Origin: Octopus vulgaris
Lineage: Eukaryota
Length of the DNA: 64,000 nt
Reading direction: 5' to 3'
Assembly: GCA_951406725.2 (NCBI GenBank)
Contig: OX597815.1
Location: forward strand, 119,226,001 to 119,290,000
Below, piece by piece: positions 1 through 61,989 of this stretch. Under the pieces are notes generated by a model that was given only the letters and a program-made list of their open reading frames with translations, made no database searches and was not told where the DNA came from. Each line of letters begins with the position of its first letter. Within the stretch, counting starts at the first letter, position 1. A program made the translations under genes and the position numbers.

Positions 1-1250
1 AAGTCACCACATGGTTTAAAACCATCGCTAACAGAAGTAGATCAAGGTTTACCTAATTCAGTATAAAGGACTCTTACCTATCTGCATCTTAGTTATATAG
101 AGGGTTGAATTCCACTTGGGTCTACATCAAAATTAGTGATGAGGATGTAGACATCATTTTGAACACCAAAGAAACCGTATGTTTTGATAAGAGGCTGGAC
201 TGACCCTGAAAGCTCCCTCAGTGTTGCACTTGAGGCATTCAACTTTACTGATATATATAATCTCATAGGCATTTTTATTTGAGATATGTTTAATTATGAC
301 ATTCCCCCACAACTAGTTTTTGCCTCTACATGGACAATGCTTTGGCACTGTCAAAAGGGATGGGGCTCAAAGTCATCAACGAAACCAGTCTGTAGGTGGT
401 TGATTTTCCAAATGTAATGTTAAACTTAGACACTGGTGCCTATGAACACTTTCATAAACTGAATGAGAAACTGGCAATTATTAATACAGGTTCCTGCCAT
501 CCAGCCTTAGTGTTCAGGAACCTGGTCAAAGAGTTTAGCAAACGAATCTCCAACCAATCTTCAAATAAGGGGAGTTTCAATGTCACAGCCCTATATTACA
601 ACAAGGTCCTAACTGCAAGTGGTTTTAATAAGGTTTGGTATATGTGTGATTCTAACTCCACCATGTGAAAATGCCACTATAAAGTCATATAGTTCACCCT
701 CCTCCATTTTCCCTGAACATTAAACCTTGTCCAGGCAGAATTTTCTTTAGTTCAGTCAATAAGCATTTCCCCCAAACACATAGATACAGAAAAATATTTA
801 ATAGACATATCTTGAGGATCTCTTTTAGCTGTGCTTCTAACATTAAGAAAACATCACTAAGTAGGCCCAAGCCTAAAACAGAGGCAGACTGCTCATATGG
901 AGATAACACTGCACACCCATTTGACTGCCATTGCAGTATGAGGTAGAGTATGTGGGCATATCAGAATTTCTCTTCAGTATCACAAGCACAAGTTCTTGTT
1001 TAACATTCAAGAGAGGTGAATTGATACATCTCTAGCGAGACATAGAGGATATTGAGAGAAAATTCTATATATTATGACATTAAAGAGAGGATGCTAAAAG
1101 AGTGTAAACCTTATTTTAATAGTAAAAGGAGGTGCATGCTCTGTCAGGCTGAGAAAAGAATGATATCAAAGGACTCTCTCCGTGCATGTACCTACCTTAA
1201 CTGTAAGGTGACGTTTTTACCTCATCCAGTAGAACAAAAATGTGGTTAGT
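1..1250 (+). mobile_element. Degenerate Penelope-like retroelement (RT, thumb and GIY-YIG C-terminus), cut by the window edge
   Basis: Frameshifted peptides VDFPNVMLNLDTGAYEHFHKLNEKLAIINTGSCHP..KRISNQSSN (PLE thumb, cf. FLDVTLNL..G.YKPY.KPN..P.YI...SNHP), a 'FPQTHRYRKIFNRHILRISFSC' segment near 770-835, and KECKPY...RRCMLCQAEK (1052-1249), typical of PLE C-termini; many stops. Confidence 0.75.
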
Positions 1251-1304
1251 CATATTTCATAACATTTTTTCATTAAGCATAATATCATGCATTTATAGGT
1301 ATAA

Positions 1305-1852
1305 TATGACTATATGGTTAAGAAGTTAGGTAAATAATCATGTAGTTTGAGGTTCATTCTCACTACATGGCACCCTCGGCAAGTGTCTTCTGCTGTAGCC
1401 TCTAGTCGCCCAGTGATTTGGTAAACAGTAATTGAATGGAAATTCATATATATGTATATGTATGTACCTGTATATTTAATTCAGAATAAATTTTGGTTGG
1501 CCCCCCACTTTGTAGCAAGGTTTTGAAGGAAAGCATCAGAGCAAGTGTCTTTGACTATATCCCCAAACCAACCAAAGCCTTATAAAAGGATTGGGTGGAT
1601 GGAAATTGAAAGAAGCCTATTATACACACACATTCACACACGTGTGTGTGTGTGTGTGTTTGTGTATACCGTTGTCCTGGTATGGTTGTAAATATGAATC
1701 ACCGTCATACAAGTGAGGTTGTTCATTTCCAGACTGTCATGGAAAGCACATCTGGCTATGAGAAAACATTACCTTAGATGGAAAATTTGCTTCAATAAAT
1801 TCCATCTGGCCTATTGCAAGCATAGAAAAGTGGATCTTAAATGATGATGATA
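1305..1852 (+). mobile_element. Diverged tRNA-headed SINE(s) with internal (CA/TG)n and (GAT)n tail
   Basis: TGGTTAAGAAG head, GGCAAGTGTCTTC core, GGAAATTGAAAGAAGCC, microsatellite, then body and ATGATGATG tail; the same family recurs on - at ~19030-19390, ~31090-31470 and ~33790-34110. Confidence 0.65.
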
Positions 1853-2714
1853 AAGCTATTCAAACCAGCCTTGTATACTCAGCTTAGTTTTTTCTTGATG
1901 CCTTAACTCACAGTTTCAGCTAAATCTCTATTATTTCTGTTTGCCTTCCATGTTAGATTTACTATAACATGGCCAACAATATAATTTTTACCACTACCCT
2001 ACATGACAGCAACTACTACTATCACTCCAAAAGCAAGTACACATCTCCAAAACACTTCACCTTCATTCTTTTACTCGCATAATTTAGGTAGAGCACTTCA
2101 CTATCTTCTTTAATTAAGTATGAAGACACCTCAGTTTTATAGAAGCAGGGGATTGAGAAATATTGCCTTTTACAATGACATGGATAATTTAACTGAAGTT
2201 TTGTGATGAATTTGGCCATTTTAAATCTAGTCATTTACTTGGCTGTAGTTAAAAAATATATACACAAATTACTGTATGTTTAATGGAAGAAATAAGGAAA
2301 TCAGATTCAGTATGTTGGATTTCACAAATAAGATGAAAATATATATGTGCTTGTAAAAAATATGCCATGCTAGTATGGGAAAACAGCAGTGGTGGTAGGG
2401 GTGATGGTGGTGAAGGTGGCGGTGGTGGTGGTGGTGGTGGTTATAGTTTTAAACGTAATGATGATAATGATTGTTGTGGATGACCCCTAACCCTAACCCA
2501 AACTAAACAAGTACCTCTTCTCAGCACCCTACCTTACTGCAAGTGGGTGATGCTACACAAAACCGCCTGTAATGCTACATTGAACCATTCCAGCCATTCT
2601 TGTAGCCAATATTACAATCAAATTAAGGCTTAATTCTTTTGTCTGTCCTTGTTTATCCCCTCTGTGTTTAGCCCCTTGTGAGCAATAAAGAAATGAATAT
2701 TACAATCACATCAA

Positions 2715-2946
2715 GGTGGCGAGCTGGCAGAAACATTAGCACACCAGCCGAAATGCTTAGTGGTATTTTGTCTGTCTTTATGTTCTGAGTTCAAATTCCG
2801 CTGAGGTCGACTTTGCCTTTCATCCTTTCGGGGTCGATTAAATAAGTACCAGTTATGCACTGGGGTCGATGTAATCAACATAATCCTTTTGTCTGTCCCT
2901 GTTTGTCCCCTCTGTATTTAGCCCCCTGTGGGCAATAAAGAAATAA
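2715..2946 (+). mobile_element. tRNA-derived SINE with CGACTTTGCCTTTCATCCTTTCGGGGTCGAT central domain (Meta-domain-like)
   Basis: GGTGGCGAGCTGGCAG head, B-box GAGTTCAAATTCC, central domain, flanking direct repeat AATATTACAATCA; relatives at ~8828-8976 (+), ~47810-48010 (-) and ~63205-63520 (+). Confidence 0.75.
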
Positions 2947-3203
2947 ATATTACAATCACATTTTCTCCTCTCTCCATGTCCGTCTCCAAATACAAACTAC
3001 TACAGCAACCAAAACCTACCACTCATTTTAATTCCTTCCTATTTCATGTACCGTTACCATGTTTACCGCCTTGCTATTTATCTTTTATCTTTAACTTGTT
3101 TCAGTCATTTGACTGTGGCCATGCCAGGTCACTGCCTTGAAGAATTGTTACTCGAATGAATCGACCCCAAAACTTTTTTTTTAAAGCCTGGTACTTATTC
3201 TGT

Positions 3204-3586
3204 GATACAGTTCTATATTTAAGAGATGAGTTATTTACATTATTTACATTTGATGGATACTTGTCCTCATCTTTTTTGTTAACACAACGTTTCAGCTGAT
3301 ATACCCTCCAGCCTTCATTGGGTGTCTTGGGGAAATTTCAAACCTAGGTTCTCATTCCTAAGCTATTTTTCGATGTTATTATTATCATTCAGGTCACTGC
3401 TTGGAATCAAACTTAGAATCTTGGGGTTAGTAGCCTGCACTCTTAACCACTACGCCGTATGCCTGTGGGCATACGACATAGTGCCATGCTGGGACTGAAC
3501 CTGATGAAGGCTGGAGGGTATATCAGCGGAAACGTTGTGTTAACAACGAACAAGTTGAGGACAAATATCCATCAAATGTAAATAAT
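3204..3586. mobile_element. Palindromic non-autonomous element: tRNA-like head plus PLE-type hammerhead tail, head-to-head
   Basis: Inverted repeats ~3237-3318 and ~3504-3588; candidate TSD GTACTT(A/G)TTCTGT at 3191-3203 and 3587-3599; tRNA-like A/B boxes on the - strand at ~3390-3463. Confidence 0.75.
3499..3541 (+). ncRNA. Minimal type I hammerhead ribozyme motif
   Basis: CTGATGA-A-GGCTG[GAGGGTATAT]CAGC(G)-GAAA-CG-TT-GTGT; the inverted copy (~3278-3328) supplies stem I GACAC/GTGTT. Confidence 0.7.
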
Positions 3587-4227
3587 GTACTTGTTCTGTT
3601 GTCTCTTTTGCTGAACTGCTATGTTACAGAGATGTAAACATACCAATGCCAGTTGTCAAGCAGTGATGGGGACAAATACACACACACACACGACGTTAAG
3701 AAGGGCATCCTGCAGTAGAAACCATGCCAAAACCATTGCAGCTCCTTTCAAACCGCCCAACCCATACCAGCATGAAAAACAGACATTAAATGATGATGAT
3801 GATAATGATGACAATGGGCTTCTTTCAGTTTCCATCTACCAAATCCACTTACAAGGCTTTAGTTAGCTCAGGGCTGTACTAGAAGACATTTGCCCAAAGT
3901 GCCATGCCGGGGAACTGAACCTGGAACCATGTGGTTGGGAAGCAGAGTCGACTGGGTGCTTTTTACATGGCACCAGCACAGGCGAGGTCAATTTTGGTGT
4001 GGTTTTTACAGCTGGGTGCCCTTCCAAATGCCAACCACTTCACAGTGTGGACTGGATACTTTTTATATGACACCAGCCCTGGCAGCGTCACCAAGTAACT
4101 TGCAAGACAAGGAATTTTTGAGATGGGAGGGGGGCATTGGAGGAGGTGATCTTGTTAGAGTGTGATAGAGAGAGAAAGAGAGGTAGAAACAGGTGTCTTG
4201 CTATAGACACACACGTATGTATATGTA

Positions 4228-5018
4228 TATGCTGATGACCTGGCCCTCATAGCAGAATCATTACTGGAACTAGAAAAGAAATTTAGGATGTGGAAGCTAG
4301 GTTTAGAATCAAAAGGCCTTAGAGTCAATGTAGCGAAGACTAAAGTTCTAGTAAGTAGGAAGGCAAACTCATCACACACTCCCTCAGGTAGGTGGCCTTG
4401 CTCAATCTGTAGAAAAGGTGTCGGTAGAAACTCTAGACAATGTATCCAGTGTAAGCTATGGACACATAAGAGGTGCAGCAACATCAAAGGAAAATTAAAG
4501 CTTTCGTATGCAGCAGATGCACAGGGGCAATAGACACCACAGACACTCAGAAAATAGATTCCATCACACTCCAGGGGGAGAAATTAGAAGTAGTTGATAG
4601 CTTCCACTACCTAGGTGACCAAGTTAGTAGTGGGCGTGGATGCTCACAGGATGGCCAGCTGTGATTACCTTGGATCGTTGGGTGACTTGCTGTGCTTGAG
4701 GAGACCTATGAAGTCAAGTACATCAACATCAAAATAAAAATCAAATGGAAATTGTGGCTGTGATACTCGTGCCGGTGGCACGTAAAAAGCACCAACCATT
4801 TGTGGCCGTTACCAGCCTCTTCTGGCCCCTGTGCCAGTGGCATGTTAAAAGCACCCACAACACTCATGGAGTGATTGGCGTTAGGAAGGGCATCCAGCTG
4901 TAGAAACACTGCCAGATCAGACTGGAGCCTGGTGCAGCCTCCTGGCTTCCCAGACCCCGGTCGACCCATCCAGTCCATGCTAGCATGGAAAGCGGATGTT
5001 AAACAATGATGATGATGA
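4228..5018 (+). mobile_element. 5'-truncated, internally deleted RTE-clade LINE with 3' UTR and (GAT)n tail
   Basis: Begins TATGCTGATGACCTG (YADDL), then WKLGLESKGLRVNVAKTKVLV, WPCSICRKGVGRNS.QCIQCKLWTHKRCS, EVVDSFHYLGD; ends GGATGTTAAACAATGATGATG. Confidence 0.85.
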
Positions 5019-5900
5019 TATATATATATATATATATACACATACATATATTATTGGCTTCTCCACAGTTTACTAAATTTCTACCAAATTCACTCACAGG
5101 ACATTGGTCAGTCTGAGGCTATTGCAGAAACATTTAGCCAAAGTACTATACAGTGAGACTGAACCTGAAACCACATGGTTGTTAAGCAAGCTTCTTAACC
5201 ACTCAGCCATGCCTGAGCCAAACCATAAAGCCATGCATGACAAATTTTCACATTTTCCATATTACATCACCATATCTCTGCCACCATCAGCAATTCACCT
5301 CCTACTATCACACCCTTCTGGTGTGGTTACCTCTACTTTTGTTTTTTACTTATTATTTTCTACCACTTTATAACACCACCGTTACCACCATATCTAATTT
5401 CTTTTATATCACACTCTATCTTTCTCTAGATTCACCTCCCTGTTCACCCTGCTATCATTCTTTTTATCTCCAGGCTCCTAGCTTTTCTCCTTTCACCTTT
5501 TATTTCCTGTCTATTGTTCTCAAAGTCCACCGATTTTCCCATCATGCCCCTGTTCAGATAACACCAGAGTGAGCATGCAGTGAAGCTGTTTGTGTGTGTG
5601 TGTTTATACACAGAAAGAAGCAGCTACTGGTCTATTTTATAATTTTTATGCACATGGGTGGATATATATACAAGCACACACATTTACACCTACACATGTG
5701 CGTGTGCTTACACGTGATAAAATACTCATTTATGTCTAAAACAAACTGTATACAGAACTGCACATATACATACCAGTGTATATGTCTGTGTATGTATATG
5801 AATATATCTGTGTGTGTGTGTGTGTGTGTGTGTAAAATTTCTGTATGCATACACAAATTTATGTATTCACTCTTGTGTGCACATGTTTATACATACACAC

Positions 5901-7348
5901 TATCTCTCTCTCTACAAAATTTAACCTTAGGCGAGGCTACCTCAAGCCGTAATCCCATCTCTTCCCATCTCTTCCCATCTTTCAGCCATCTTTCAGCCAT
6001 CTTTCAGCCATTGGCGGTCTTTTTTCCTCCTCTTACCATTACGATTCTACAATTTAAATTCCCAATTCAACTAACTTACTTCTTAAATTTCAACTCCCGA
6101 TCGATGTCCGCAGCAAGTTCTTTAAAAATTTATCTTAATATTTCCATTCGTTGTTACTACGTTTATTCATACATTGTTACGAAAATTTAACCTTTTAAGG
6201 CTACTTTCAAGCCTTCGCCATAACTTGATTTATCTTTCTATCTCTCTCTCTACAAAATTTAACCTTAGGCGAGGCTACCTCAAGCCGTAATCCCATCTCT
6301 TCCCATCTCTTCCCATCTTTCAGCCATCTTTCAGCCATCTTTCAGCCATTGGCGGTCTTTTTTCCTCCTCTTACCATTACGATTCTACAATTTAAATTCC
6401 CAATTCAACTAACTTACTTCTTAAATTTCAACTCCCGATCGATGTCCGCAGCAAGTTCTTTAAAAATTTATCTTAATATTTCCATTCGTTGTTACTACGT
6501 TTATTCATACATTGTTACGAAAATTTAACCTTTTAAGGCTACTTTCAAGCCTTCGCCATAACTTGATTTATCTTTCTATCTCTCTCTCTACAAAATTTAA
6601 CCTTAGGCGAGGCTACCTCAAGCCGTAATCCCATCTCTTCCCATCTCTTCCCATCTTTCAGCCATCTTTCAGCCATTGGCGGTCTTTTTTCCTCCTCTTA
6701 CCATTACGATTCTACAATTTAAATTCCCAATTCAACTAACTTACTTCTTAAATTTCAACTCCCGATCGATGTCCGCAGCAAGTTCTTTAAAAATTTATCT
6801 TAATATTTCCATTCGTTGTTACTACGTTTATTCATACATTGTTACGAAAATTTAACCTTTTAAGGCTACTTTCAAGCCTTCGCCATAACTTGATTTATCT
6901 TTCTATCTCTCTCTCTACAAAATTTAACCTTAGGCGAGGCTACCTCAAGCCGTAATCCCATCTCTTCCCATCTCTTCCCATCTTTCAGCCATCTTTCAGC
7001 CATTGGCGGTCTTTTTTCCTCCTCTTACCATTACGATTCTACAATTTAAATTCCCAATTCAACTAACTTACTTCTTAAATTTCAACTCCCGATCGATGTC
7101 CGCAGCAAGTTCTTTAAAAATTTATCTTAATATTTCCATTCGTTGTTACTACGTTTATTCATACATTGTTACGAAAATTTAACCTTTTAAGGCTACTTTC
7201 AAGCCTTCGCCATAACTTGATTTATCTTTCTATCTCTCTCTCTACAAAATTTAACCTTAGGCGAGGCTACCTCAAGCCGTAATCCCATCTCTTCCCATCT
7301 CTTCCCATCTTTCAGCCATCTTTCAGCCATCTTTCAGCCATTGGCGGT
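5901..7348 (+). repeat. Tandem array of ~4.4 near-identical 327-338 bp monomers
   Basis: Unit starts TATCTCTCTCTCTACAAAATTTAACC at 5901, 6239, 6577, 6904 and 7231; the length difference is one 11-nt CCATCTTTCAG subunit. Confidence 0.95.
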
Positions 7349-7360
7349 GCGCCCGCCCCC

Positions 7361-7522
7361 CACCCCCACCACCAATACCGATGAACACTGTTCTCACCCC
7401 CACCACCAATACCGATGAACACTGTTCTCACCCCCACCACCAATACCGGTGAACACTGTTCTCACCGCCAACACCACCAATACTGGTGAACACTGTTCCT
7501 CACCCCCCACCACCAATACCAG
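7361..7522 (+). repeat. 34-bp minisatellite, ~4.6 copies
   Basis: CACCCCCACCACCAATACCGATGAACACTGTTCT at 7361, 7395 and 7429, diverged copies at ~7463 and ~7501. Confidence 0.9.
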
Positions 7523-8479
7523 TATACCCTGTCCTCACCATCTACACCGGATACGCCTTACTCATCTACACCGGGTAAGCCCTACTCCCTCCTCCTCCCC
7601 CACTACCCCTTCTCCTCATATGCTTTCACTGTGAAAAGACAAGCTGCTAGCGCCATAGCTCATCAACTGCCCACCGATCTTACGCTTCCTCCGGACACTG
7701 CTTCATTCCGACTATCCCCCTTTAGCACCCTCCCGCCTCGTAATATCCTACGTTTTTATTTCTTAGGAACCTACACCAACCCTTCCTGCCATCGTTCCTC
7801 CTTACCCCAACCTTCCCCACTGGTTGCTCCCCTATATTACCCACCTCAACTGGACCCCCCTCCCCAACTCAACTCTAGAATATCTGTATTCTTTCCTCTA
7901 CCTAATAACGTTACTCAGTGACGATAACGAATGTCTTTATTTCTTAGGAACCTACACCAACCCTTCCTTACTCAGTGACGATAAATGCTGTGACTACAAA
8001 GACCCGGGCTGCTTTCTGCAGCAATTCCACATACCCCCTACTCATTCTAAGTACCCCAGATCCCCAAAGTACCCTGGATCCCCAAAGTACCCCGGACCTC
8101 GTTGCCCCCGTGCCGCTGACACGTTAAAATGCTCGAACCGATCGTGACGATGCCGGACCCTCCGGCCCCTGTGCAGGTGGCACGTAAAAAGCACCCAATC
8201 CACTCACGGAGTGGTTGGCGTTAGGAAGGGCATCCAGCCGTAGAAACTCTGCCAGATTCAGACTGGAGCCTGGTGCGGCCCCTGGCTTCCCAGACCCGGT
8301 CAAACCGTCCAACCCGTGCTAGCGCGGAAAGCGGACGTTAAACGATGATGATGATGATGATGATGACACCACACATATATATGTGTGTGTGTATACGTAT
8401 ATACATGTGTGTATATATGTATATATGTATGCTCTTTTTTAATTATTTTAAATCTTTCTCTGTGGAAGGAACTGGTTTC

Positions 8480-13450: not shown

Positions 13451-13454
13451 TATA

Positions 13455-13587
13455 AGGGCATCCAGCCGTAGAAACTCTGCCAGATCAGACTGGAGCCCGG
13501 AGCAGCCCCTGGCTTCCCAGACCTCGGTCGAACTGTCCAACCCGTGCTAGCACGGAAAACGGACGTTAATGATGATGATGATGATGA
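13455..13587 (+). mobile_element. RTE-tail SINE fragment in (TA)n, tail-to-tail with the next element
   Basis: AAGGGCATCCAGCCGTAGAAAC...CGGACGTTAATGATGATG. Confidence 0.85.
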
Positions 13588-13599
13588 TATATATATATA

Positions 13600-14798
13600 C
13601 ATCATCATCATCATCATCATCATCGTTTAACGTCCGTTTTCCGCGCTAGCACGGGTTGGACGGTTTCGACCGGGGTCTGGGGAGCTCAGGACTGCCCCAG
13701 GCTCCAGTCTAGTCTGGCAGTGTTTCTACAGCTGGATGCCCTTCCTAACGCCAACCACTCCGCGAGTGTAGTGGGTGCTTTTTACGTGCCACCTGCACAG
13801 GTGCCAGAGGGGTCTGGCATCGGCCACGTTCGGATGGTGCTTTTTTTTTTTTTTTTTTTGGGGGGGGTGCAGAAATATAGGGGAGCACCAGTGGGAGGGG
13901 TGGTTCAGGACAGGTTCTAGGCAAGTAGAACGTAGGATATCGAGAGAGGGGTAATGCATGGTGAAATAGCGTATTGAAGAGGGGGTTCAAAGAGTAGACA
14001 CCTATAATGGTGGTGGGAGAAACGACATCCGGTATAGTTGGAGCAAAATAGAGATATCCGGTATTGGTGGTGGGGGTGGGTAGGGCGGGCGCGCCACGAA
14101 GAATCGGCAGCCAATTTCTAATCAGCCCTGTAAGGGAGATAGATCTTAAATATCTATAACGATAACTAGTGAATTATACAGAATATGCAAAAACGAGGCG
14201 AGGCTGAAATAGTAAACAGAGTGGCGACTAGGGGGATCAGAATAATAATAATTAATAAATAATAATAATAAATAGAGATACGGATGAATTAAAGTTCAAA
14301 GATTTCTTATCTTGGGATCACTTCGTTTACGGACAGACTTGGCAAAAGGAATTCGGAATCAAGAATGAAGCAGGTTACTAGCTTAAGTATGCATAGCCAT
14401 GGCGAGGAGTAGGAAGAGAAGGAGTCCAGACAGACAATGTAAAAAAGAGGGGAGAGAAACCCCGCGAAGAATCGGCAGCCAATTTCTAATCAGCCCTGTA
14501 AGGGAGATAGATCTTAAATATCTATAACGATAACTAGTGAATTATACAGAATATGCAAAAACGAGGCGAGGCTGAAATAGTAAACAGAGTGGCGACTAGG
14601 GGGATCAGAATAATAATAATTAATAAATAATAATAATAAATAGAGATACGGATGAATTAAAGTTCAAAGATTTCTTATCTTGGGATCACTTCGTTTACGG
14701 ACAGACTTGGCAAAAGGAATTCGGAATCAAGAATGAAGCAGGTTACTAGCTTAAGTATGCATAGCCATGGCGAGGAGTAGGAAGAGAAGGAGTCCAGA
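13600..14798 (-). mobile_element. Composite non-autonomous retroposon, copy 2 (368-bp monomer array, GC motif, body, RTE tail)
   Basis: Monomer repeat at 14097 and 14465 (period 368); minus-strand motif GCGCGCCCGCCCTACCCACCCCCACCACCAATACCG; (AT)nACA on both flanks. Confidence 0.75.
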
Positions 14799-18174: not shown

Positions 18175-18274
18175 CTAGGTAATCGATTACTGAGCCTAAA
18201 TGAGCTGGGTTTCTATAAGAAGCCTGCAAAATTTTAAGTCACATGGAGCTGATTCAAACTGTTTTAAATAATAA

Positions 18275-18750
18275 GAATGTGCTGGTTTAGTCATGTGATG
18301 CATATGGATGAGAACAGCTGCATAAAGAAGTTCTGAGCTCTAATTGTGGTAGGTACCTGTGGAAGGGGTAGATCTTAGAAGACATGAGACAAAGTGGTGA
18401 GAAAGGATCTTTGGATGCTAGGCCTCACTGAGGAAATGACAAGGGACCGGGAGGTGTGGCAATTTGCTGTACTGGATAAGACATGTCAAGCTCTGTAAAA
18501 TCACTGTCTTCCACACATACAGGCTTGTCCTTTCAGGTGCTGGTGCCACTTAAAAAGTACCCGTGCTGATTAACGCACCTGTGCCGGTGTTGCATAAATG
18601 CACTCAATCCTGTGGCATGTAAAAAGCACCCAGCACACTCTGTTAAGTGGTTGGCATTAGGAAGGGTACCCAGCTGTTGAAACCATGCCACAACTGACAG
18701 TTGAAGTCTGGACAGCTCCCTGTTAGCCAACTCCATCTCAAACCGTCCAA
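18275..18750 (+). mobile_element. RTE LINE 3' end and tail
   Basis: W.SHVMHMDENSCIKK, GTCGRGRS.KT..KVVRKDL, then the RTE tail. Confidence 0.7.
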
Positions 18751-24940: not shown

Positions 24941-26169
24941 CAGAGCAGCTGACTGGCTTCTGTGCCGGTGGCATATAAAAAGCACCATTCAAGTGTGATC
25001 GTTACCAGCATCGGCTTACTGGCACTTGTGCCGGTGTCATGTGAAAAAGTATTCAAGTGAGGTCGTTGCCAGTGCCACTCGACTGGCTCTTGTGCAGGTG
25101 GCACATAAAAAACACCATTTGAGCGTGGTGGTTGCCAGTACTGCCTAACTGGCCCCGTGCCGGTGGCACGTAAAAGCACCCATTACACTCTCTGAGTGGT
25201 TGGCATTAGGAAGGGCATCCAGCTGTAGAAACTCCTGGTGCAGCCATCTGGCTCACCAGTCCCCGGTCAAATCGTCCAACCCATGCCTGCATGGAAAGTG
25301 GATGTTAAACGATGATGATGCACTACAGACTTCTTTTAGTTTCCATCTACCAAATTTACCCACAAGGCTATGGTCAGCTCTTGGCTATAGAAGAAAAGAT
25401 TTGCTCAAGGTACCATACAGTAGAACTAAACACAGAACTGTATGGTTGGGAAGCAAATTTCTTACCACACAGCCATGCCTGTGTCTGTATAAAATCAAAT
25501 TAGACTGCAAGGCTGGGATACAGTTATATTATATTGTTATATTTCGGAATGGTCATTTTGCCAGTTTAGCCAATAAAATCACATGCACTATATATTTGGT
25601 GTTACTTTGCTTCAGTGTTATTTATTTTTTACATTAATCTTAATCTTATTTCGGCCAGAGTTCTTTCGTCACACTCCTGTGACCGCATCAGTGGTCCTTT
25701 GTTTTCTTCTTTCTTATTTGTGTCTCCCCTTACTAACCGTCAGCCATTTTGTATTTTTATTGTATGTCTTCATTTGTGCATGCTTATATCTCTATGTGCG
25801 TCTATGTTTATTTAGTGATGGGAACAGTAACGACAGAAATAGTAACGATAATGAAGATAACCCTAGAAAGGCCATTAATATTTATACCCACCCCTTTGAC
25901 ACTCAATTCTTCAACGTATGACAGAGACATAATAAGACAGAGGCCCAACAACTCGGGATTAAACCTGCATGTGGCCTACATAAGCTTATTCAGCACACGA
26001 GGAACAGAGAAGTGGTATGCCTTCCCAAAAATAAGTCCGGCAGGATGTCAATAGACAGCTTACCGAACTACATCCAGGCAATACAACTGCATATCGCCAA
26101 AAAAAACAAAACAAAAAAAAAACAACTTTACAGGCGCATGAGGAGAGAGAAAAGGTCCTCAACGCCCAC

Positions 26170-28140
26170 ATGATGATGTGGACAATTGTTCTGGGACCCC
26201 AGAAACGTACAGTAAATAATTTCCAAGCCTGGAACAATGATATCCCGGCACTGTATGGACTTCGCAAGGACCATAAAGTAACCACTGACCCTATAGCAGG
26301 ACCACCAACAAGACCAGTCTGTGGAGCGAATATCGCTAGCAATTACAGAATCTCCTACTTCCTCTCAATGATCATACGCCCTATAATCCAGATGTCACCT
26401 GATGTTTGTGACAGCACAGAAGATCTCCTCAGCAGGATCAATGACTGTAACAATACTTGTGACCTGACAGGATGTATGGTGGGTAGCATGGATGTGGTAT
26501 CCCTATACCCATCGATCAACGTAGATTTTGCGGTGGAGAAGTGTGTGGAGATGATCAATGAGAGCCAGATGGAGTTCCGTAATGTCAACACAGAGGAACT
26601 GGGCCTCCTACTCAGACTGACATGTAACAATGAATACCTAGATAAACATAATCTTAGTAGTTTCTGCCCCAGTAGATGTTTAAGAGGTAGACCGCCCACA
26701 ATTACTTCTATGGCTAGGAAGACCCATATAGAAAGATGGCGCAGATGGACCAGAGCCATACGGAGCCCTGCAAATGTCCATCAGGTAAAGAAAATGATCG
26801 CACATGCACTAGGAGATAGTATAAGAGTTACCCTAAAAGGCCACACGTTTAAGTTTAACAATAAAATATATGCTCAGGACGAGGGGGCAGCCATCAGCGT
26901 TAGTATCGCTGGTGATGTGGCCAACCTTTTCATGGTATGGTGGGACAGAAGGCTTAAAGAATGCCTAACACAGAACTCCATACTCGTAAACATGTACTCT
27001 CGCTATGTTGATGATTTCAACATAGTGGTAAAGGCACCCCCACAAGAGAGTACTGTTGATATAGTAATAGAAACTAATACTATGGAGAGCATCCAGCAAA
27101 TAGCTAACTCCATCCACCAGAGTATTAAGGTCACAATAGACTACCCCACTAAATACCCCAACCATAGACTACCAGTACTAGACACTGAACTCTAGCTAGA
27201 AATTGTGAATAATAAAACCTAAATCCTTCATTCATACTAAGCCAAACCTATGGCCTCAAAATACTTGATCCACCGGAACTCAGCCATTGCGGACAATGCC
27301 AAATTCAATATTTTGATGGCAGACCTCGTCAGAATAATGAGAAATGTGTCACGCATGTGCGAGCCTACATAGTTAAAGAGACACATACAATATTTCATTT
27401 ACCGCATGCAGTTCTCAGGTTACAGCCATAAAGAAAGGATCAGCGTATACAAAGGAGCCATGAAGAAATTTGATAATATATTATGTAATGATAGGAATGG
27501 GATTTGCCCACTCTATAGGAACAAGTCATGGAACACTATAGAAAGGACAAAAAAGAAAATAGGGAAGGCCAACTCTTGGTATGATAGCCATAGATACCAG
27601 AGTGTCATGTTCGTTGACACCACCCCTGGAGGTGAACTGACGTACCGCTTTAGAAGGACCCTAGACAAACTTAAGCTAAGGATTAAGGTTGTTGAAAAGC
27701 CAGGCAACCCTATCAAATCTATAATTGGTAGAACCTATCCTTCTAGTAGAACCCCCTGTACTGATAAGTACTGTACTGTATGTAGATTTAGCCCACAAAC
27801 AAACTGTAAAGCCAGAAATGTAGTCTATAGTATAAGATGTATAGAGGGACGATGCAGTAACAAGACAGCGACATACGTAGGGGAAACGGCAAGAAGCATA
27901 GGAGAGCGGGTAAATGAACATTGGAAACAACTCAAAGAAGGAAAAAGCTCATCGATTCTGTAGCAACACGTCGAACAGGAACACGGGGGATCAATCAACA
28001 ACATAGAAATTAAAATATTGTCCACACATAGAACAGATGCAACAATCAGACAAATTACAGAAGCTACACACATAATAGAAAATAAACCTAGCCTGAATAG
28101 AAAACTAGAATGGAACAATAGTACACACCACAACATATGA
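26170..28140 (+). pseudogene. PLE polyprotein (reverse transcriptase plus GIY-YIG endonuclease), disrupted
   Basis: ORF 26170-27195: LYGLRKDHK, RPVC, MDVVSLYPSI, GAAISVSIAGDVANLFM, RYVDD, LPVLD. ORF 27406-27963: C....C..C linker, NVVYSIRC...YVGETARSIGERVNEH. Ends LNRKLEW; several TAG/TAA stops. Confidence 0.92.
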
Positions 28141-28513
28141 TGGTAGAGGATCCCGAAAACATAATAAATACACAGATAAATAAACAAATAGAAATAAATA
28201 ACTATTTTTTAAAATTTATTATTATTATTACTAGTATTGTTGTTATACATACATACAAGCATATGTAATGATAATAATAAAGGGATGTAAACACATGAAC
28301 AAAATAAGAATAAACAAAAACAACAACAAAAACAAATTACATGAACGTATATAAACAGAAGATACAAATATTACAGGCATCCCCCCACACACACACTAAA
28401 TAAACATAGACGCACATAGAGATATAAGCATGCGCAAATGAAGACATACAATAGAAATACAAAATGGCTGACGGTTAGTAAGGAGAGACACAAATAAGAA
28501 AGAAGAAAACAAA

Positions 28514-28558
28514 GGACCACTGATGCGGTCACAGGAGTGTGACGAAAGAACTCTGGCC
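28514..28558 (+). ncRNA. Hammerhead-like motif in the PLE terminal repeat (variant core CUGAUGC); inverted copy at ~25653-25697
   Basis: GGACCA-CTGATGC-G-GTCAC[AGGAGT]GTGAC-GAAA-GAAC-TC-TGGCC. Confidence 0.6.
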
Positions 28559-30029
28559 GAAATAAGATTAAGATTAATGTAAAAAATAAATAACACTGAA
28601 GCAAATTAACACCAAATATATAGTGCGTGTGATTTTATTGGCTAAACTGGCAAAATGACCATTCCGAAATATAACAATATCTGTTTCAACACACGACTTC
28701 ACATAAAAAATCTTGCACAACAAATATATAAAAGTTATATTATAGTTATATTAAAAGAAACACTCAAACCTTAGGTATAGTGATATAAAAAAAGAAAATC
28801 ATTCTATTTTTAGCAGAGTCTCACTTTTACTTTATTTTAACAAGGTAAACTTTGACAGTGATTTCAGCACAATTGCTTATAACTAGGCTGACAAAGTCAG
28901 CTGAGCTCAAACTTTGAAGTCCCTGTCAAATTTTTCCTTGTTAAGATAATTATAATTATATATTAGCTTGTTTATGTATGTCTATGCATTTTGGTGGGTA
29001 TGACAAAACTGGTGTGCCAAATAAAACTAAAACCCTTCAAGGTGTTGCTCCAGCATGGCTAGAGTCCAGTGATTGAAACTAGTTAAAACAAAGCATGATG
29101 TATGTCCCTTTAAGCTTGTTTGACTGTCTTGATCAAAAAATACGTACAAGACAAAGTACTAGTTTCATCATAAATGACAAAGTTTTCAGCATGGCTAATA
29201 TATATTTCCCTAACATTTTTCTTGAGACCTCTGGAAGTATGCTGTGACTGAGAAGACCCGGCAAATAAAGTGAGTCCACAGCTGTAACCTACACCAGTGT
29301 TGCATAACCAGCCCACTCAAAAGTATCTTGGATCATAGTGCAACATGCCGAATTTGAGGAGACCTACTGAGTCAAGTACATCAACATCAAATCAAATGGA
29401 AATTGTAGTTGTGTGCCCCATGCTGGTTGCATGTAAAAAGCACCATCTGAACATGGCCAATGCCAGTGCCCACTTTGACTGGCTTCCGGTGGCACATAAA
29501 AAACATCATCCAATCATGGTTGATGCCAGCTATTCTGGCCCCTGTGCTGGTGGCACATAAAAAGCACACACTACATTCACGGAGTGGTTGGCTTTAGGAA
29601 GGGCATCCAGCTGTAGAAACACTACCAGATCAGATTGGGGCCTGGTGCAGCCTCCTGATTTCCCAGACCCCTGTCGAACCGTCCAACCCATGCCAGCAAG
29701 GAAAACAGACGTTAAACGATGATGATGATGATGAAAAGAACAAGATCTATATAAGTACTTCATTAGCTTAAAGCTGTTTCTGCTATAAGAAGCAGTGCAT
29801 TCAGAGCTGAGTGGCTGTGTAAGCTAATGAAGGTAACTCCTGTTCTTTGCCATTCATTAACTGATATTACACTCTGTACTCACCTAGTGCAGCACTCTAA
29901 ATCATATGTATATTGAGTTCTAACTAATAAATAGTATCACTATGTCTAAGCAAAATCATAATGGATATAAACATGCACACACATGGAAATATATACATAT
30001 ATTTATATGCAAATTTGTTTCTATACATG

Positions 30030-43450: not shown

Positions 43451-43793
43451 ATTAATAGTTATCGCCAAGCTAATATGGCAGTCCAGAAATATAGGATGAA
43501 TGCTGCCGTCAATTAGCTCCAAGATGCCATCACCTCTAGCTAGCTATGTGACACACAAACCTGTGTCCATTATAACCTTTAAACAGGGGAGGTCAACCGC
43601 TTCCCCTGAAACTAGTCTGCAGATGCCTGACCAGCAAGGGGAAGCAGCTGACCTCCCCTGTTCGAAGGTTATGATGGACACAGGTTCATGTGTCACATAG
43701 CTAGCTAGAGGTGATGGCCTCTTGGAGCTAATCGATGGCAGCATTTGTCCTATATTTCTGGACTGCCGTATTAGCTTGGCAATAACTATTAAT
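43451..43793. mobile_element. Foldback/palindromic MITE (~157-bp arms, ~29-bp spacer)
   Basis: ATTAATAGTTATCGCCAAGC... and ...GCTTGGCAATAACTATTAAT; the near-identical ORFs 43500..43700 (+) and 43544..43744 (-) reflect the palindrome. Confidence 0.9.
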
Positions 43794-51327: not shown

Positions 51328-51565
51328 TCAATGAATGGTTGAATGACCAAATCCAAGCTTCTCTGCTAGTTCCTCAACAGTTACGATGATATTTTGTTCC
51401 ACCAGGGTTTTCAGGATGTCCTTGTCGAGTTCTACAGATCTTTCAGGATGAGGCTCGTCTTCTAGGCTGTAGTTTATGGCTCGGGATTTCTGGAACCACC
51501 ATTGACACTGCCTTACGCTTATTGTCCAATCCCCATATACTGCATTAATATTTCTTGTACTTTGC
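51328..51565 (-). mobile_element. mariner transposase N-terminal fragment
   Basis: RNINAVYGD.TISVRQCQWWFQK.R..NYSLEDEPHPERS...TVEELAEKLGFGHSTIH (mariner HTH domains). Confidence 0.85.
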
Positions 51566-51890
51566 ACACATTTATATTCTGTTATTCTTTTATATGTTTC
51601 AGCCTTGAGGTTGTGGCCATGCTGGATCATGTGTGTGTGTGTGTGTGTGTCTATCTGTCTGTCTGTCTGTATGTATATATGTATATGTATGTGTGTGAAC
51701 AATAATATTTTCAACAGATGTGTTGCAAATGTATCTGATTGTTCTCAAGCTTCAATACTGTGTGTGTGTGTATGTGTGTGTGTGTGTATGTATGTATGTA
51801 TATGTATGTATGTATGTATATGTATGTATGTATATGTATGTATGTATGTGTGTATGTATGTATGTGTGTGTGTATGTATGTGTGTGTGTA

Positions 51891-53997: not shown

Positions 53998-56185
53998 ATC
54001 ATCATCATTTAACATCTGCCTTCCATGCTGGCATGTGTGGGATGGTTTGACAAGAGCTGGCCAGGCAGAGGTCTGCACCAGACTTCTGCAAGTGCTTTGA
54101 CAGCTGGATGCCCTTCCGAACACCAACCACTCTATAGTGTGGACTGTGTTCTTTTAAGTGACACCTGCACTGACAGGGACAGCAAGACAAAAAAAAATCT
54201 CTTTTGAGATGGGAGGGGCCATTGGAGGAGGTGCTCTTGTGTCGGATGATGAAAGGTTATAGTGAGACACAGACAGGTGTCTTGCTGTAGAGAGAGAGAG
54301 AGATCAGGAATGAAGACAGAAACAGGTGTGCTACTGCAAAGGAAATACTTAGTTATCCAACCTGAGAGAAGTGTAGGAGAAGGAGAGAGAGAGAGAGGGA
54401 GACAGCAGGATAGAGATGGTGGGAAAGTGCCGGGCATACTCAAAAGGGACGGGGATCCGAATATAAATGGGATGGTTGAGTAAAGGAAGAGAGAGATATA
54501 CATGGTGACAGGTGCCAGGGCATACCCTAGAGGTTCAATCTCCATAATATAAATGGCAAGACATTGTGAAGGAAGCGTGATTAAAGAGTGTGGAGGGGGA
54601 GTGAGTGGTGAAAACCCGGGGTATATTTAGAGTCAGTATATTTAGATAGCAAAGATACAGAGGAACAGGGCTGTAAGGACAGGATTGGAGAGTGAGGGCT
54701 AGGTATAGAAGGAGGAAATGTGAGGAAGAGAAAAGGTGTAGATTGGTTTATTGGGTGAAGGATGTGTGAAACATTTTCTTGTTATGTGTGGGTGGAACAC
54801 ACAGATCAAGGACTAGCAGAGAGCAATGATACAGTAAGACATGGTGTGGGTGGTACACAGGCTGGAAGCCAGCGGAGAGCAATGATACAGTGGCACAGGG
54901 CCAAGGGGACAGGATTGGGGAGTGGGAGGTAAGCCTAATGCATGAAGTAGAAATGTGACAAGAGAAGAGATGTAGTTTGGTTTGTTGTGGTAGAGTGCGT
55001 GAGAAGTTTTCTTGTTAAGTGTAGGTGGGACACACAGCGCTTCTAGAACTCAATTTCGCTGACGTGGTTGAGAACTTCATATCGCCAGACATGTGAATTT
55101 ATTGTCATTTCCTCTGTGAGGCCCAACTAAGATCAGTCCTTACCACTTCATCCCATGTCTTCCTAGATCTCCCACTTCCTTGGGTACTGTCCACTTTCAG
55201 TGATTGGCACTTCTTTATGCAGCTATCCTCATTCATACACATTACATGTCCAAAGCAATGTAGGCTTCTCTCTTGCATGCTACATCTAATTCCTCTTATG
55301 CTGAACTTTTATCTCAATAAATTTGCACTTTACCTTACATGTGCACTGATGTTGCACATCCAACAGAGCATACTACCTTCATTTCTCTCCGGTCTATGCT
55401 TGTCTTCTGCATTCAGAGCCCATGTCTCACTACCATGGAGTATAGCCATTTGCATACAAGTATCATATAGTCTACCTTTTACACTCTGAGAAGGAGTCCT
55501 TTTGTTGCCAACAGAGGTAATAACTCTCTGAACTTCCTCCACCCAATTCTTATTCTGGAAACAATACTTTCAGAACATCCTCAACCATTGCTAATTTGGT
55601 TGCCTAGGTAACAGAAACTATCTACAACCTTAAGAGAGCCTCCTGGGCATTTGAGAGAAACTAAGTCCTGTTTGCTCTTAGCGCTTATTGTTCCTGCACA
55701 TCTGCCATACACAAAGATGACTTTATCTATCAATCTACCTGTGATTCCACTTGTGTCTATCCTACATATTGAGCAGGGCCATTTATTTGACGGAAAGGGA
55801 GTATTATCTTCTTTCTTACTAACAACTGTGGTCTTTGCTAGGTTAACTTTAAGGCCCTTTGATTCCAGGTTTTGTTTCCATACCTGGAATTTCTTCTCCA
55901 ATTCTGCTAAAGATTCTGCAATAAGAACAAGGTCATCAGCATATAGCAGTTCCCAAGAGCACCCAGTTTAGAATTCCTTTGTTATGGCCTGAAGGACTAT
56001 AATAAATAGAGTGAGCTGAGAACCCAGCCCTGGTGAACCCCTATTTGTACACTAAATTCATCACTGTATTCATGGCCGACCCTCACCTTACTGGCAGCAC
56101 CACTGTAATTGTTTGTACAGCTCTAACAAGCAACTCCTCTACTCCTAACTTTTTTAGAGACCACCATACAACAGAGCGAGGAACT
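53998..56185 (-). mobile_element. 5'-truncated RTE LINE with ~1.1-kb 3' UTR and (GAT)n tail
   Basis: WELLYADDLVL, WKQNLESKGLKVNLAKT, WPCSIC, VVDSFCYLG, KGRLYD...LHGSETW; tail at 53998-54200. Confidence 0.88.
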
Positions 56186-57492: not shown

Positions 57493-58476
57493 GATAAATT
57501 TTAACAATAAAATCTAACATCGGCCCCCAATGACCATATGGATCTTGGCTGTAAACTACTGGTTGTGAACCATAGCTATAGCTGTCTGATTTATACCAAA
57601 CTTTGATGTTTTATGGCAATGAAATTTGAAAAGTAAAAGTGGTGGGCAAAAAGTAAGGAGTTAGAAAAACTGGATATGATTCATTGGAGTTATAGTGAAA
57701 ATCTGAGAGGCTAATTAACTGAATATATGATAAAAACATGACAATATGTCAGAAGTGTAGGCTACTATATGATTCTGTGATATCGCAGCCATGACCAATG
57801 CTAGTGTTGCATGTCCAGCCCATTTAAAAGTACCTTTGATGCATCGGATGATATGATATGCTTGAGACCTGTTGAGTCAAGTAAAACCAAAATCGTAGCT
57901 GTGGCCAATACCTCCTGACTGACTCTCATTCTGGTAGCACATAAAAAGCACCATCTGAACGTGGTCAATGCCAGTGTCCCCTGACTGGCTCCTGTGTCAG
58001 TGGCACGTAAAATGCACTATCCAAACATGGTCAATGCTAGTGCCCTCTGACTGGCTCCAATGACGGTGGCATGTAAAAAGCACCCACTACACTCTCAGAA
58101 TGGTTGGCATCAGGAAGAGCATCAAGCTGTAGAAACATTGCTAGATCAGACTGGAGCGTGGTGCAGCCGCTGGCTTTCCAGATCTTTGTCAAACCGTCCA
58201 ACCCATGCGAGCATGGAAAGTGAACATTAAACAATGACGATGATACTGATACTATGTAACAATCAGATCTTAGAAAGTTAGGTCTTTCAGAAATACTTGG
58301 GGCAAAAAATGTATGGTTCATGTGCAAAACCATTCAGTTGATTGGAGCATACAAAATCACCCACATTAATGATTGCCATCACAATGGCAGTTTGATGATG
58401 ACAAAGGTTGCAATGTTATTATTGTTGTTCTTCTTGTAGCTTTGGCTCCATTGTTTTACATTAATCAGTGTGTTGA

Positions 58477-60812: not shown

Positions 60813-61989
60813 TTAAATAGAAAATTATACACATGAATGCAGTGAAAGTTGGAGATCTGTCATGAGTAATTTTGAGGTTATTAAAAGAATCTGGATAAGT
60901 CATGAACCAGAGCTACATGAATTTCCTGTAAATTAAGCTTGCTCAGATTAGCATGAGATTGATCCTCCAACCATTTTTATCTTCCATGGCATGTGACAGT
61001 TCTTGGTGGCATCTGCTGATATCTGTTAAGTGATTGATGTACCAGGTACAACATATATATTCACTCATTATTCATTTTATCATACAATAAAAAATGTTTA
61101 AGGTCTTGATTAATGAAAGTTTACAAGATGATTCTTATATTTATTAACAATATATTACACATATATTTACAATTCAGAGTAACCATCTTTTCTTTCACCA
61201 TAGCCCTTAATCATCATTTTATAGTTTTATCACCTTGCAGTTCTTTATATCAGCTATTTTCAATGTTACAATTTGTTTGTATCTTGTTTGAGCCACTGTA
61301 AAAAGAATGTTAGAAAGCATACATTTGCAACTATTTTTGCAAATAAGAATGTTTTAATTTATGGTTGAAAAATGGGTGAATTCATCATCATCATCATAAT
61401 CATCGTCATCACCATCATCGTTTAACATCTGCTTGCCATACTGGCATGGGCTGGATGGTTTAACTGAGGACTGGCAAGCCAGGAGGCTGCACCAGCCTCC
61501 AATCTGATCTGACAAGATTTCTACAGCTGGATGCCCTTCCTAATACCAACCATTCTGAGAGTATAGTGAGTGCTTTTTTATGTGCCACAGGCATGGGGGC
61601 CAGTCAGGCAGTACTGGCATTGACCACACTTGAATGGTGCTTTTTACATGCTACCGGCATGGGAGCCAGCCAGGTGGCGCTAGCAATGACCATGCTCAAA
61701 TGGTGCTTTTTACGTGCCACAAGCATGGGACCAGTCAGGCTGCACTGTCATCGACCATGTTCATATGGTGCTTTTTACGTGCCACTGGCATGTTTAAATA
61801 ATAGATAAATCTATATGCCACACCCAATGTCTTCACAGAGCTACAAAGATGATTATGGCTATGCTGAGGTGCCCAAAGTTGGGTGTAAGCCTCACTAAAT
61901 AGTTGTTTCTTGCATTACCAACAGGGTACAGTAAATATGAATTCTTCATTCACTAAATGTGTCTGAAACTTTAGGAAGTTTATTCCATA

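Follow-up and report, generated by a model that had tools for sequence, protein, structure and literature searches.

The 64 kb window (the whole stretch of DNA analysed here) contains two copies of a composite retroposon that belongs to a dispersed, multi-copy family. The family is very probably a young and non-autonomous one that owes its mobility to RTE machinery. Copy 1 spans 5900-8366 on the forward strand and copy 2 spans 13600-14798 on the reverse strand; each begins with a tandem array of monomers, continues through a common junction motif into a body, and ends in an RTE-derived tail and a (GAT)n run. A preceding inspection of the letters by themselves (the sequence-only reading) had proposed a young, non-autonomous family with a 5' array and an RTE-type 3' end, and that proposal is borne out by CpG content, by variants present in sequencing runs and by matches to the tail. 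The parts of the two copies are as follows (X1, X2, X6 and X7 are public sequencing runs; L002 is a locus from a protein-based scan).

Copy 1
5900..7348, +, monomer type 1 array; 37% GC, CpG observed/expected 1.3; joints head-to-tail in X1, X6 and X7
7349..7380, +, junction motif common to copies 1 and 2; GC-box-like CCGCCC, CACCC tract, CCAAT
7361..7539, +, 34-bp minisatellite, 4.6 copies (TRF), derived from the terminal part of the junction motif
7540..7935, +, C-rich non-coding body, 'tether'-like; blocks at about 7700-7838 also in copy 2
7933..7984, +, rearranged fusion point; 7933-7968 repeats 7752-7787 (35/36) and 7968-7984 repeats 7912-7928
7985..8108, +, probable last RTE ORF codons and ensuing 3' UTR, with an 18-bp repeat; loose ends before 7985 in six contigs of X7 and one of X2
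8109..8212, +, 66-bp units, one degenerate and one partial, like the 2-4 copy arrays that precede other tails in the window
8213..8254, +, RTE 5'-UTR domain within the tail; 39/42 identical to L002:3996-4037
8304..8343, +, RTE 3' terminus; 77% over 61 columns (microsatellite included) to the 3' end of the full-length RTE of L002
8344..8366, +, (GAT)7 tail; CA/TA-rich flank beyond

Copy 2
14097..14798, -, monomer type 2 array; 368 bp, 1.9 copies, 334 overlapping bases identical
13864..14096, -, junction motif and short body, without ORF-end remnant
13600..13845, -, bipartite RTE tail and (GAT)8; 87.5% to the tail of copy 1 over 224 columns

Structure of the two copies

The array of copy 1 has a period of 327 bp and contains 4.4 copies (5900-7348, TRF), with monomers measuring, in order, 338, 338, 327, 327 and 118 bp. 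An 11-bp unit is present in them 3, 3, 2, 2 and 3 times; once this unit is removed there are zero substitutions. The near-identical array of 4.4 monomers that had been described 5' of a C-rich body is therefore real in the assembly, its differences being confined to that one 11-bp unit. Sub-repeats of 10 and 11 bp are found inside each type 1 monomer, the 11-bp unit forming GCCATCTT, and an imperfect internal repeat of approximately 37 bp occupies 7150-7265. Identity among the monomers stops at 7348, and the junction motif comes next. The exit of the monomers at TTGGCGG, also reported from the sequence, is present but specific to copy 1. Neither copy has a clear target duplication: in copy 1 it would be at most 4 bp, in a CA tract; copy 2 is flanked by (TA)6 on either side, which a microsatellite target would yield anyway.

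Copy 2 repeats the order monomers, junction, body blocks and tail, in keeping with the second element of matching order that had been noted. To judge similarity between the copies, alignment scores were compared to those of 300 dinucleotide shuffles. The 37-bp match at the junction scores 58 (shuffle maximum 36) and the CCCACTGG block of the body scores 40 (shuffle maximum 33); both lie above all 300 shuffles, which upholds the junction and body matches claimed previously. A longer gapped alignment of the bodies is weaker and is reached by 3 of the 300 shuffles; a global MAFFT alignment misplaces the short body and was left out of the comparison. The monomers had been called "largely different". 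That they differ is correct, but the qualifier can be dropped: the score of monomer 1 against monomer 2 was equalled or beaten by 197, 66 and 56 of 300 shuffles in three tests, and at this sensitivity the two are unrelated. Neither monomer occurs outside the two elements in the 64 kb window.

Conservation between the copies is highest in the tail, then in the junction and body blocks, and is nil in the monomer. Such a gradient fits replacement of the head, and fits equally an old divergence of heads accompanied by a refreshed tail. Two non-homologous monomer types sit on related bodies (n = 2 copies), a finding that does not give the order of events. Since there are just two copies, and since their bodies have also strongly diverged, a swap of monomers is an uncertain conclusion; rapid divergence or tail exchange would look the same.

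The family in public sequencing runs

Words sampled from 7022-8120 are present, in whole or in part, in 20 of the 24 runs listed, and 12 of the 24 contain at least half of them; run X20 contains a fraction of 0.06. All but one of the 20 holder runs share one organism label, across six studies, and the best-matching run may be the source sample itself. Four of these runs, all of them consisting of contigs, were mapped on 7022-8160 (3900, 774, 50 and 165 records); the 'RNA' labels attached to runs are guesses.

The end of a monomer is joined to the start of a monomer in three runs, at 7348 to 7022 in X6 and X7 and at 7323 to 7022 in X1, and head-to-tail arrays thus exist in the run data. A shorter cycle, in which 7319 is rejoined to 7153, is present in X1 and X7 and shows that monomer length variants exist. 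At eight monomer positions an alternative base accounts for 10-78% of the depth in X1 and X7; the array in the window is uniform. The length of the 34-bp minisatellite also differs between family members (contig joints 7397-7503, 7457-7504, 7457-7534 and 7464-7529), and contigs that lack part of the body (deletions 7802-8101, 7812-8048, 7812-8067 and 7877-8126) come close to the short body seen in copy 2. The ratio of summed contig depth over monomer to that over body, which is not a copy number, is 6.0 in X1, 5.2 in X7, 5.0 in X2 and 39 in X6; the value of 5-6 in three of the four runs is in rough agreement with 4.4 monomers per element.

The two entry points recorded for monomer 1 differ. 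One X2 contig enters monomer 1 at 7192 from AT-rich sequence, and copy 1 enters it at 5900 (equivalent to 7230), 38 bases apart in phase. Both elements in the window that possess the junction motif (2/2) start inside a monomer adjoining microsatellite-type flank. At the other end of the array, none of the 32 pieces listed (from 4934) bridges 7348 with 31 bases on each side, the best being record 10 of X2, with 22 matched and 8 loose bases on the left. Monomer 2 was not seen entering the junction among the 24 of 201 loose ends listed, from contigs mapped on copy 1 as reference.

An RTE-derived 3' part

The core of the tail occurs 19 times in the window; only copies 1 and 2 have junction and array. 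These two tails keep 13 CpG each, compared to 0-6 in the other 17, as befits the CpG-intact RTE tail ending in (GAT)n of the initial description. What that description missed is that the tail, judged by its matches, is a bipartite RTE module. The match of 8213-8254 to L002:3996-4037 (E 7e-12) stops, in L002, 10 bases short of the first ATG in the second RTE frame, and the same segment is 84% identical to L002:186-221, ahead of the first RTE frame. Positions 8304-8361 of the window are 77% identical to the 3' end of the first L002 element. An RTE 5'-UTR domain and an RTE 3' end are thus both present in the tail, which makes the tail itself bipartite.

L002 was obtained from a locus scan with a related RT protein, which returned seven loci. 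It is a contig filed in a bacterial MAG, and its positions 1-4593 contain an RTE in full length plus the 5' end of another. L003-L005 resemble it, as does protein P0001, and all are probably animal DNA in MAGs. The tail motif has one locus in metagenome contigs (L001, without ORF context) and none in prokaryote genomes or viral contigs, the junction motif has no match in metagenome contigs, and a protein scan of viral contigs yielded none either. At the protein level, RTE leaders compared to the element stay close to noise (z reaches 4 for no more than 2 of 64, whichever the region), and so do RTE C-termini compared to 8265-8345 (5 of 72). The proteins returned include no full-length octopus RTE, and the termini expected of the partner were found in 0 of 208 proteins screened.

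The window itself contains LINE fragments that we take to be of the RTE clade, an assignment made from RTE motifs and from their single-ORF endonuclease-RT relatives rather than from a tree. Pfam RVT_1 is matched by two broken reverse-transcriptase frames, 55581-55967 and 4207-4533; an Octopus bimaculoides protein is among the best matches of the former (54%), and identity is 58-76% in the main tblastn segments of both fragments, which points to an octopus as the source. Behind the RT motif lies a PHD-like finger. RTE ORF ends in the window continue into the same tail module as the retroposon, at 18271-18750 (+) and 56190-54005 (-). From their sequence, RTE LINEs here would carry a 5'-UTR-like domain in the 3' UTR, as if a bipartite derivative had been adopted as a 3' end. 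In older tails, arrays of 64-66 bp units (2-3.5 per array) lie immediately 5' of the shared tail at 24952-25180, 57937-58084 and 61570-61792. At 13454-13743 two RTE tails meet tail to tail, separated by a short stretch of TA, and make up an inverted repeat of some 290 bp (86%).

Between body and tail, copy 1 carries what is probably a short remnant of an RTE ORF end, at 7985-8010. When the loose-end sequence that precedes 7985 is translated in one frame with the window bases 3' of it, a D-R-x-x-W-R type motif results, which 151 of 208 related proteins have among their final 60 residues. The segment 7985-8007 is identical to 29239-29261 at 20 of 23 positions, the best non-self match among 1020 tiles; the frame at 29239-29261 ends in a similar peptide and a stop, and so does the ORF end at 18410-18500, which was found by a C-terminal profile (E 4e-16). 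Taken alone the ORF-end DNA match at 7985 is weak (nhmmer E 0.67), and the C-terminal RTE profile has no match there. On the combined evidence we read 7985-8345 as the final 360 bases of an RTE from the same genome. The earlier statement that the element has no convincing ORF thus holds as regards a functional ORF, and needs amending for the probable remnant.

The joint at 7935 is also carried by contigs of three runs, and one contig runs beyond it into 157 different, C-rich bases. Both halves of the fusion occur in longer contexts, as expected for an internal deletion or a chimera. We make no claim that the ATG at 7931 opens the parent ORF.

Nature and origin of the head

ARAGORN detects no tRNA in the element, the Pol III box A/B pattern is absent from monomers and junctions, and Rfam has no match in monomers or junction and one, at chance level, in the body. 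The absence of a tRNA head, previously remarked upon, is confirmed by these searches of the head, and a Pol III SINE with a tRNA, 5S or 7SL head is ruled out: there is no small-RNA head and there are no A/B boxes. The body holds a stop-free frame of 143 aa, without a Pfam match and without a longer homologue.

Non-LTR retrozymes are tandem retroelements whose monomers each contain a self-cleaving ribozyme such as the hammerhead. In the element no ribozyme family is found at Rfam E up to 5, the hammerhead core word is absent, and the folding z of the monomers is -0.31 and +1.40; lacking a ribozyme and a compact fold, the element is not a retrozyme of this kind. An HDV-ribozyme descriptor gave no match either, a result of little weight as it had no positive control. 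Membership of the L1 clade is likewise ruled out by the lack of an ORF, by the (GAT)n tail and by the RTE-derived 3' end.

The head (monomers, junction and body) has no match in loci L001-L008, in other window sequence or in proteins, and the RTE 5'-UTR domain is absent from it before the fusion point. No autonomous element bearing the head of copy 1 was found; the RTEs in the window are all 5'-truncated. The head may derive from the 5' end of an autonomous RTE by internal deletion, as opposed to capture of a foreign head, but we put this forward tentatively.

Possible function of the monomer array

The reading towards which we lean, by analogy with mouse L1 monomers, is that the array is a Pol II promoter that is rebuilt by duplication. 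RNA polymerase II would start inside an upstream monomer, each monomer being a promoter unit as in mouse L1, and a new copy would retain the monomers 3' of the start and so begin inside a monomer. RTE proteins perform target-primed reverse transcription from the 3' end of the element. An RTE-type LINE protein would accordingly recognise the 3' end of the retroposon and copy its RNA in trans from the (GAT)n end, and insertion would take place by target-primed reverse transcription into CA/TA microsatellite tracts. The monomers lost in each round would be restored by stepwise duplication, giving an array that is uniform in each element and monomers that vary across the family. The 3, 3, 2, 2, 3 pattern of the 11-bp unit fits stepwise duplication.

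The hints that the array is a promoter are of modest weight. CpG observed/expected is 1.29 in type 1 and 0.97 in type 2 monomers, compared to 0.34 for the window; however, it is also intact in body and tail (0.74-0.96), and the CpG richness of the monomers may therefore signal youth only. Eight of the 11 GCCATCTT sites of the window fall in monomer 1, and monomer 2 has none; the eight YY1-like sites are copies of one unit. PMC6454616 gives GCCATCTT as the YY1 motif of mouse L1 monomers. The conserved junction contains GC-box-like and CCAAT words, but in copy 2 their counts (by consensus patterns) do not exceed those of shuffles. In X6 the contig depth over the monomer (7212-7325) is 39 times that over the body and peaks at 7250-7287, a hint that some assay enriches the monomer.

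The strongest rival explanation, which we nevertheless regard as unlikely, is that the array is a by-product: an RTE reverse transcriptase prone to slippage or jumping would re-copy the 5' end of the RNA or cDNA at insertion, the promoter would be the junction or the flank, and the monomer would be whatever lay upstream, hence its difference between subfamilies. Duplications of 10, 11, 18, 24, 34 and 66 bp, together with a spaced duplication of about 240 bp in an RTE 3' UTR, are found across the superfamily, including unrelated copies that bear the tail, and since they occur at so many scales arrays may be by-products too. The shorter cycle from 7319 to 7153 in X1 and X7 points the same way, as does the conservation, 5' of the body, of nothing between copies 1 and 2 save the junction motif with its GC-box-like and CCAAT elements. 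Against this, many copies in four runs share the same exit point and the same monomer type, which indicates that the monomer is a heritable unit, and the counts of those elements at the junction of copy 2 do not exceed shuffles. Were the array merely a product of slippage, its value would hardly go beyond that of a marker for young insertions.

A second rival, that monomers and body belong to an autonomous RTE's long 3' UTR, the copies being ordinary 5'-truncated LINEs that end in an array, strikes us as quite improbable. The RTE at 56190-54005 (-) does carry, ahead of the same tail, about 900 bp of C-rich 3' UTR that contains an internal duplication, and one contig does continue past 7935 into other C-rich sequence. 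In copy 1, however, the probable ORF end lies 3' of monomers and body, which would place neither of them in a 3' UTR. Furthermore, none of the four loose ends that enter monomer 1 (among 24 of 201 listed) is ORF-end-like, body and monomers have no similarity to the 3' UTRs of in-window RTEs at nhmmer E up to 1, and depth is greater over the monomer than over the body, the reverse of what truncation would give except where arrays are long.

Least probable of all is that the monomers are independent satellites, or another element beside the junction, or that the assembly has inflated the array: the monomers are perfectly identical and 80 satellite families are annotated in O. vulgaris (PMC13282606), but two unrelated monomers both give way to one motif, to within a few bases, neither recurs elsewhere in 64 kb, head-to-tail joints are present in three runs, and the depth ratio agrees with the length of the array.

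Returning to a promoter rebuilt by duplication, a broader proposition is that an octopus RTE lineage, comprising autonomous and deleted members, independently evolved the strategy of rodent L1, with promoter monomers rebuilt in each round and unrelated monomers replacing one another between subfamilies while junction and tail are kept. We consider this proposition doubtful. If true, it would mean that promoters turn over, in the manner of an arms race, in a lineage that is neither mammalian nor L1; from a comparison of vertebrate L1s, such turnover was held to be specific to mammals (PMC5381506). Even in mouse it is debated how LINEs hold on to a promoter when they are copied from an RNA that begins 3' of it, and how the monomer array regrows (PMC6454616 puts forward two models). 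A second, independent system, with arrays uniform in each element and polymorphic across the family, would allow the models to be tested against each other. It would also single out the octopus repeats that are currently active and might supply promoters near genes.

Relation to known elements

The closest known relatives in design are bipartite non-autonomous RTE derivatives and RTE-mobilised SINEs (RTE-N2_Lch, RTESINE2, WALLSI3 and Bov-A). According to PMC5786205 and PMC7245038, these likewise lack an ORF, have an RTE 3' part with a piece of RTE 5' UTR joined to the 3' end, terminate in a microsatellite and exchange heads and tails. The retroposon described here has an RTE 3' end, a microsatellite tail, a piece of RTE 5' UTR (in the tail module only), no ORF and multiple copies, and its bipartite tail and ORF-end remnant tie it to these derivatives. 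The derivatives in the available listing of PMC5786205 measure 0.2-0.6 kb, with no tandem monomer head mentioned there, whereas the copies in the window measure 1.2-2.5 kb and have an array and a long body 5' of the RTE part. For bipartite elements without a head, Pol II transcription is expected (Kojima 2018, PMC5786205). The tail motif was not found in the supplement text of that paper, in which alignments may be pictures, and identity with its Ceph-domain part is not claimed.

The 5' UTRs of mouse and rat L1 offer the nearest parallel to the array. As described in PMC5381506 and PMC6454616, they resemble the copies here in having tandem 5' monomers in variable number, 5' ends truncated within a monomer, a linker that is not repeated, and monomer types that lack homology although their bodies are related; with monomer 1 they also share GCCATCTT. 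On the same sources L1 differs in being autonomous, of another clade and poly(A)-tailed, with monomers shown to be promoters; the element here is non-coding and RTE-tailed, with AT-rich monomers (37-38% GC), and is known from sequence. At best, therefore, it may work in the manner of L1 monomers; it is not a member.

Other comparisons are more distant. LP-SINEs, known from gastropods and bivalves (PMC4758252), and bird SINEs whose GC-rich heads sit on bipartite RTE tails (cited in PMC7245038) are molluscan or RTE-tailed, with a head that is not a small RNA and a proposed Pol II promoter. The heads of LP-SINEs, however, are a single domain of about 70 bp common to the 5' ends of LINEs, and the accessible part of PMC4758252 describes no array. 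RTE-2_OV of Octopus vulgaris is intact and transcribed, with UTRs of about 600 nt, and so attests to active RTE machinery in the genus (PMC9115989). As described there, its finger is of the C2H2 type and microsatellite makes up most of its 3' UTR; the RTE fragments in the window have a PHD-like finger.

Bipartite RTE derivatives and L1 monomers are thus each known, and their combination was not found described. The accessible literature, which omits most subscription journals and has Repbase and Dfam outside its scope, reports no 5' monomer array on an octopus or RTE element. The O. vulgaris repeat library places 893 unclassified SINE families in its recently active set (PMC13282606). The element may exist as an unannotated consensus in Repbase, in Dfam, in that library or in the transcriptomes of PMC9115989.

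Other features of the window

The DNA of the window is animal-like and rich in microsatellites. Two reading frames at 26035-27963, presumably Penelope-like, are flanked by a 287-bp inverted repeat (98%; 25531-25817 and 28394-28680), and the second has a weak match to GIY-YIG (E 0.00076, below the cut-off). A near-palindrome of 343 bp (87%) lies at 43451-43793, and 51331-51744 (-) contains a fragment of the HTH of a Mos1-type transposase.
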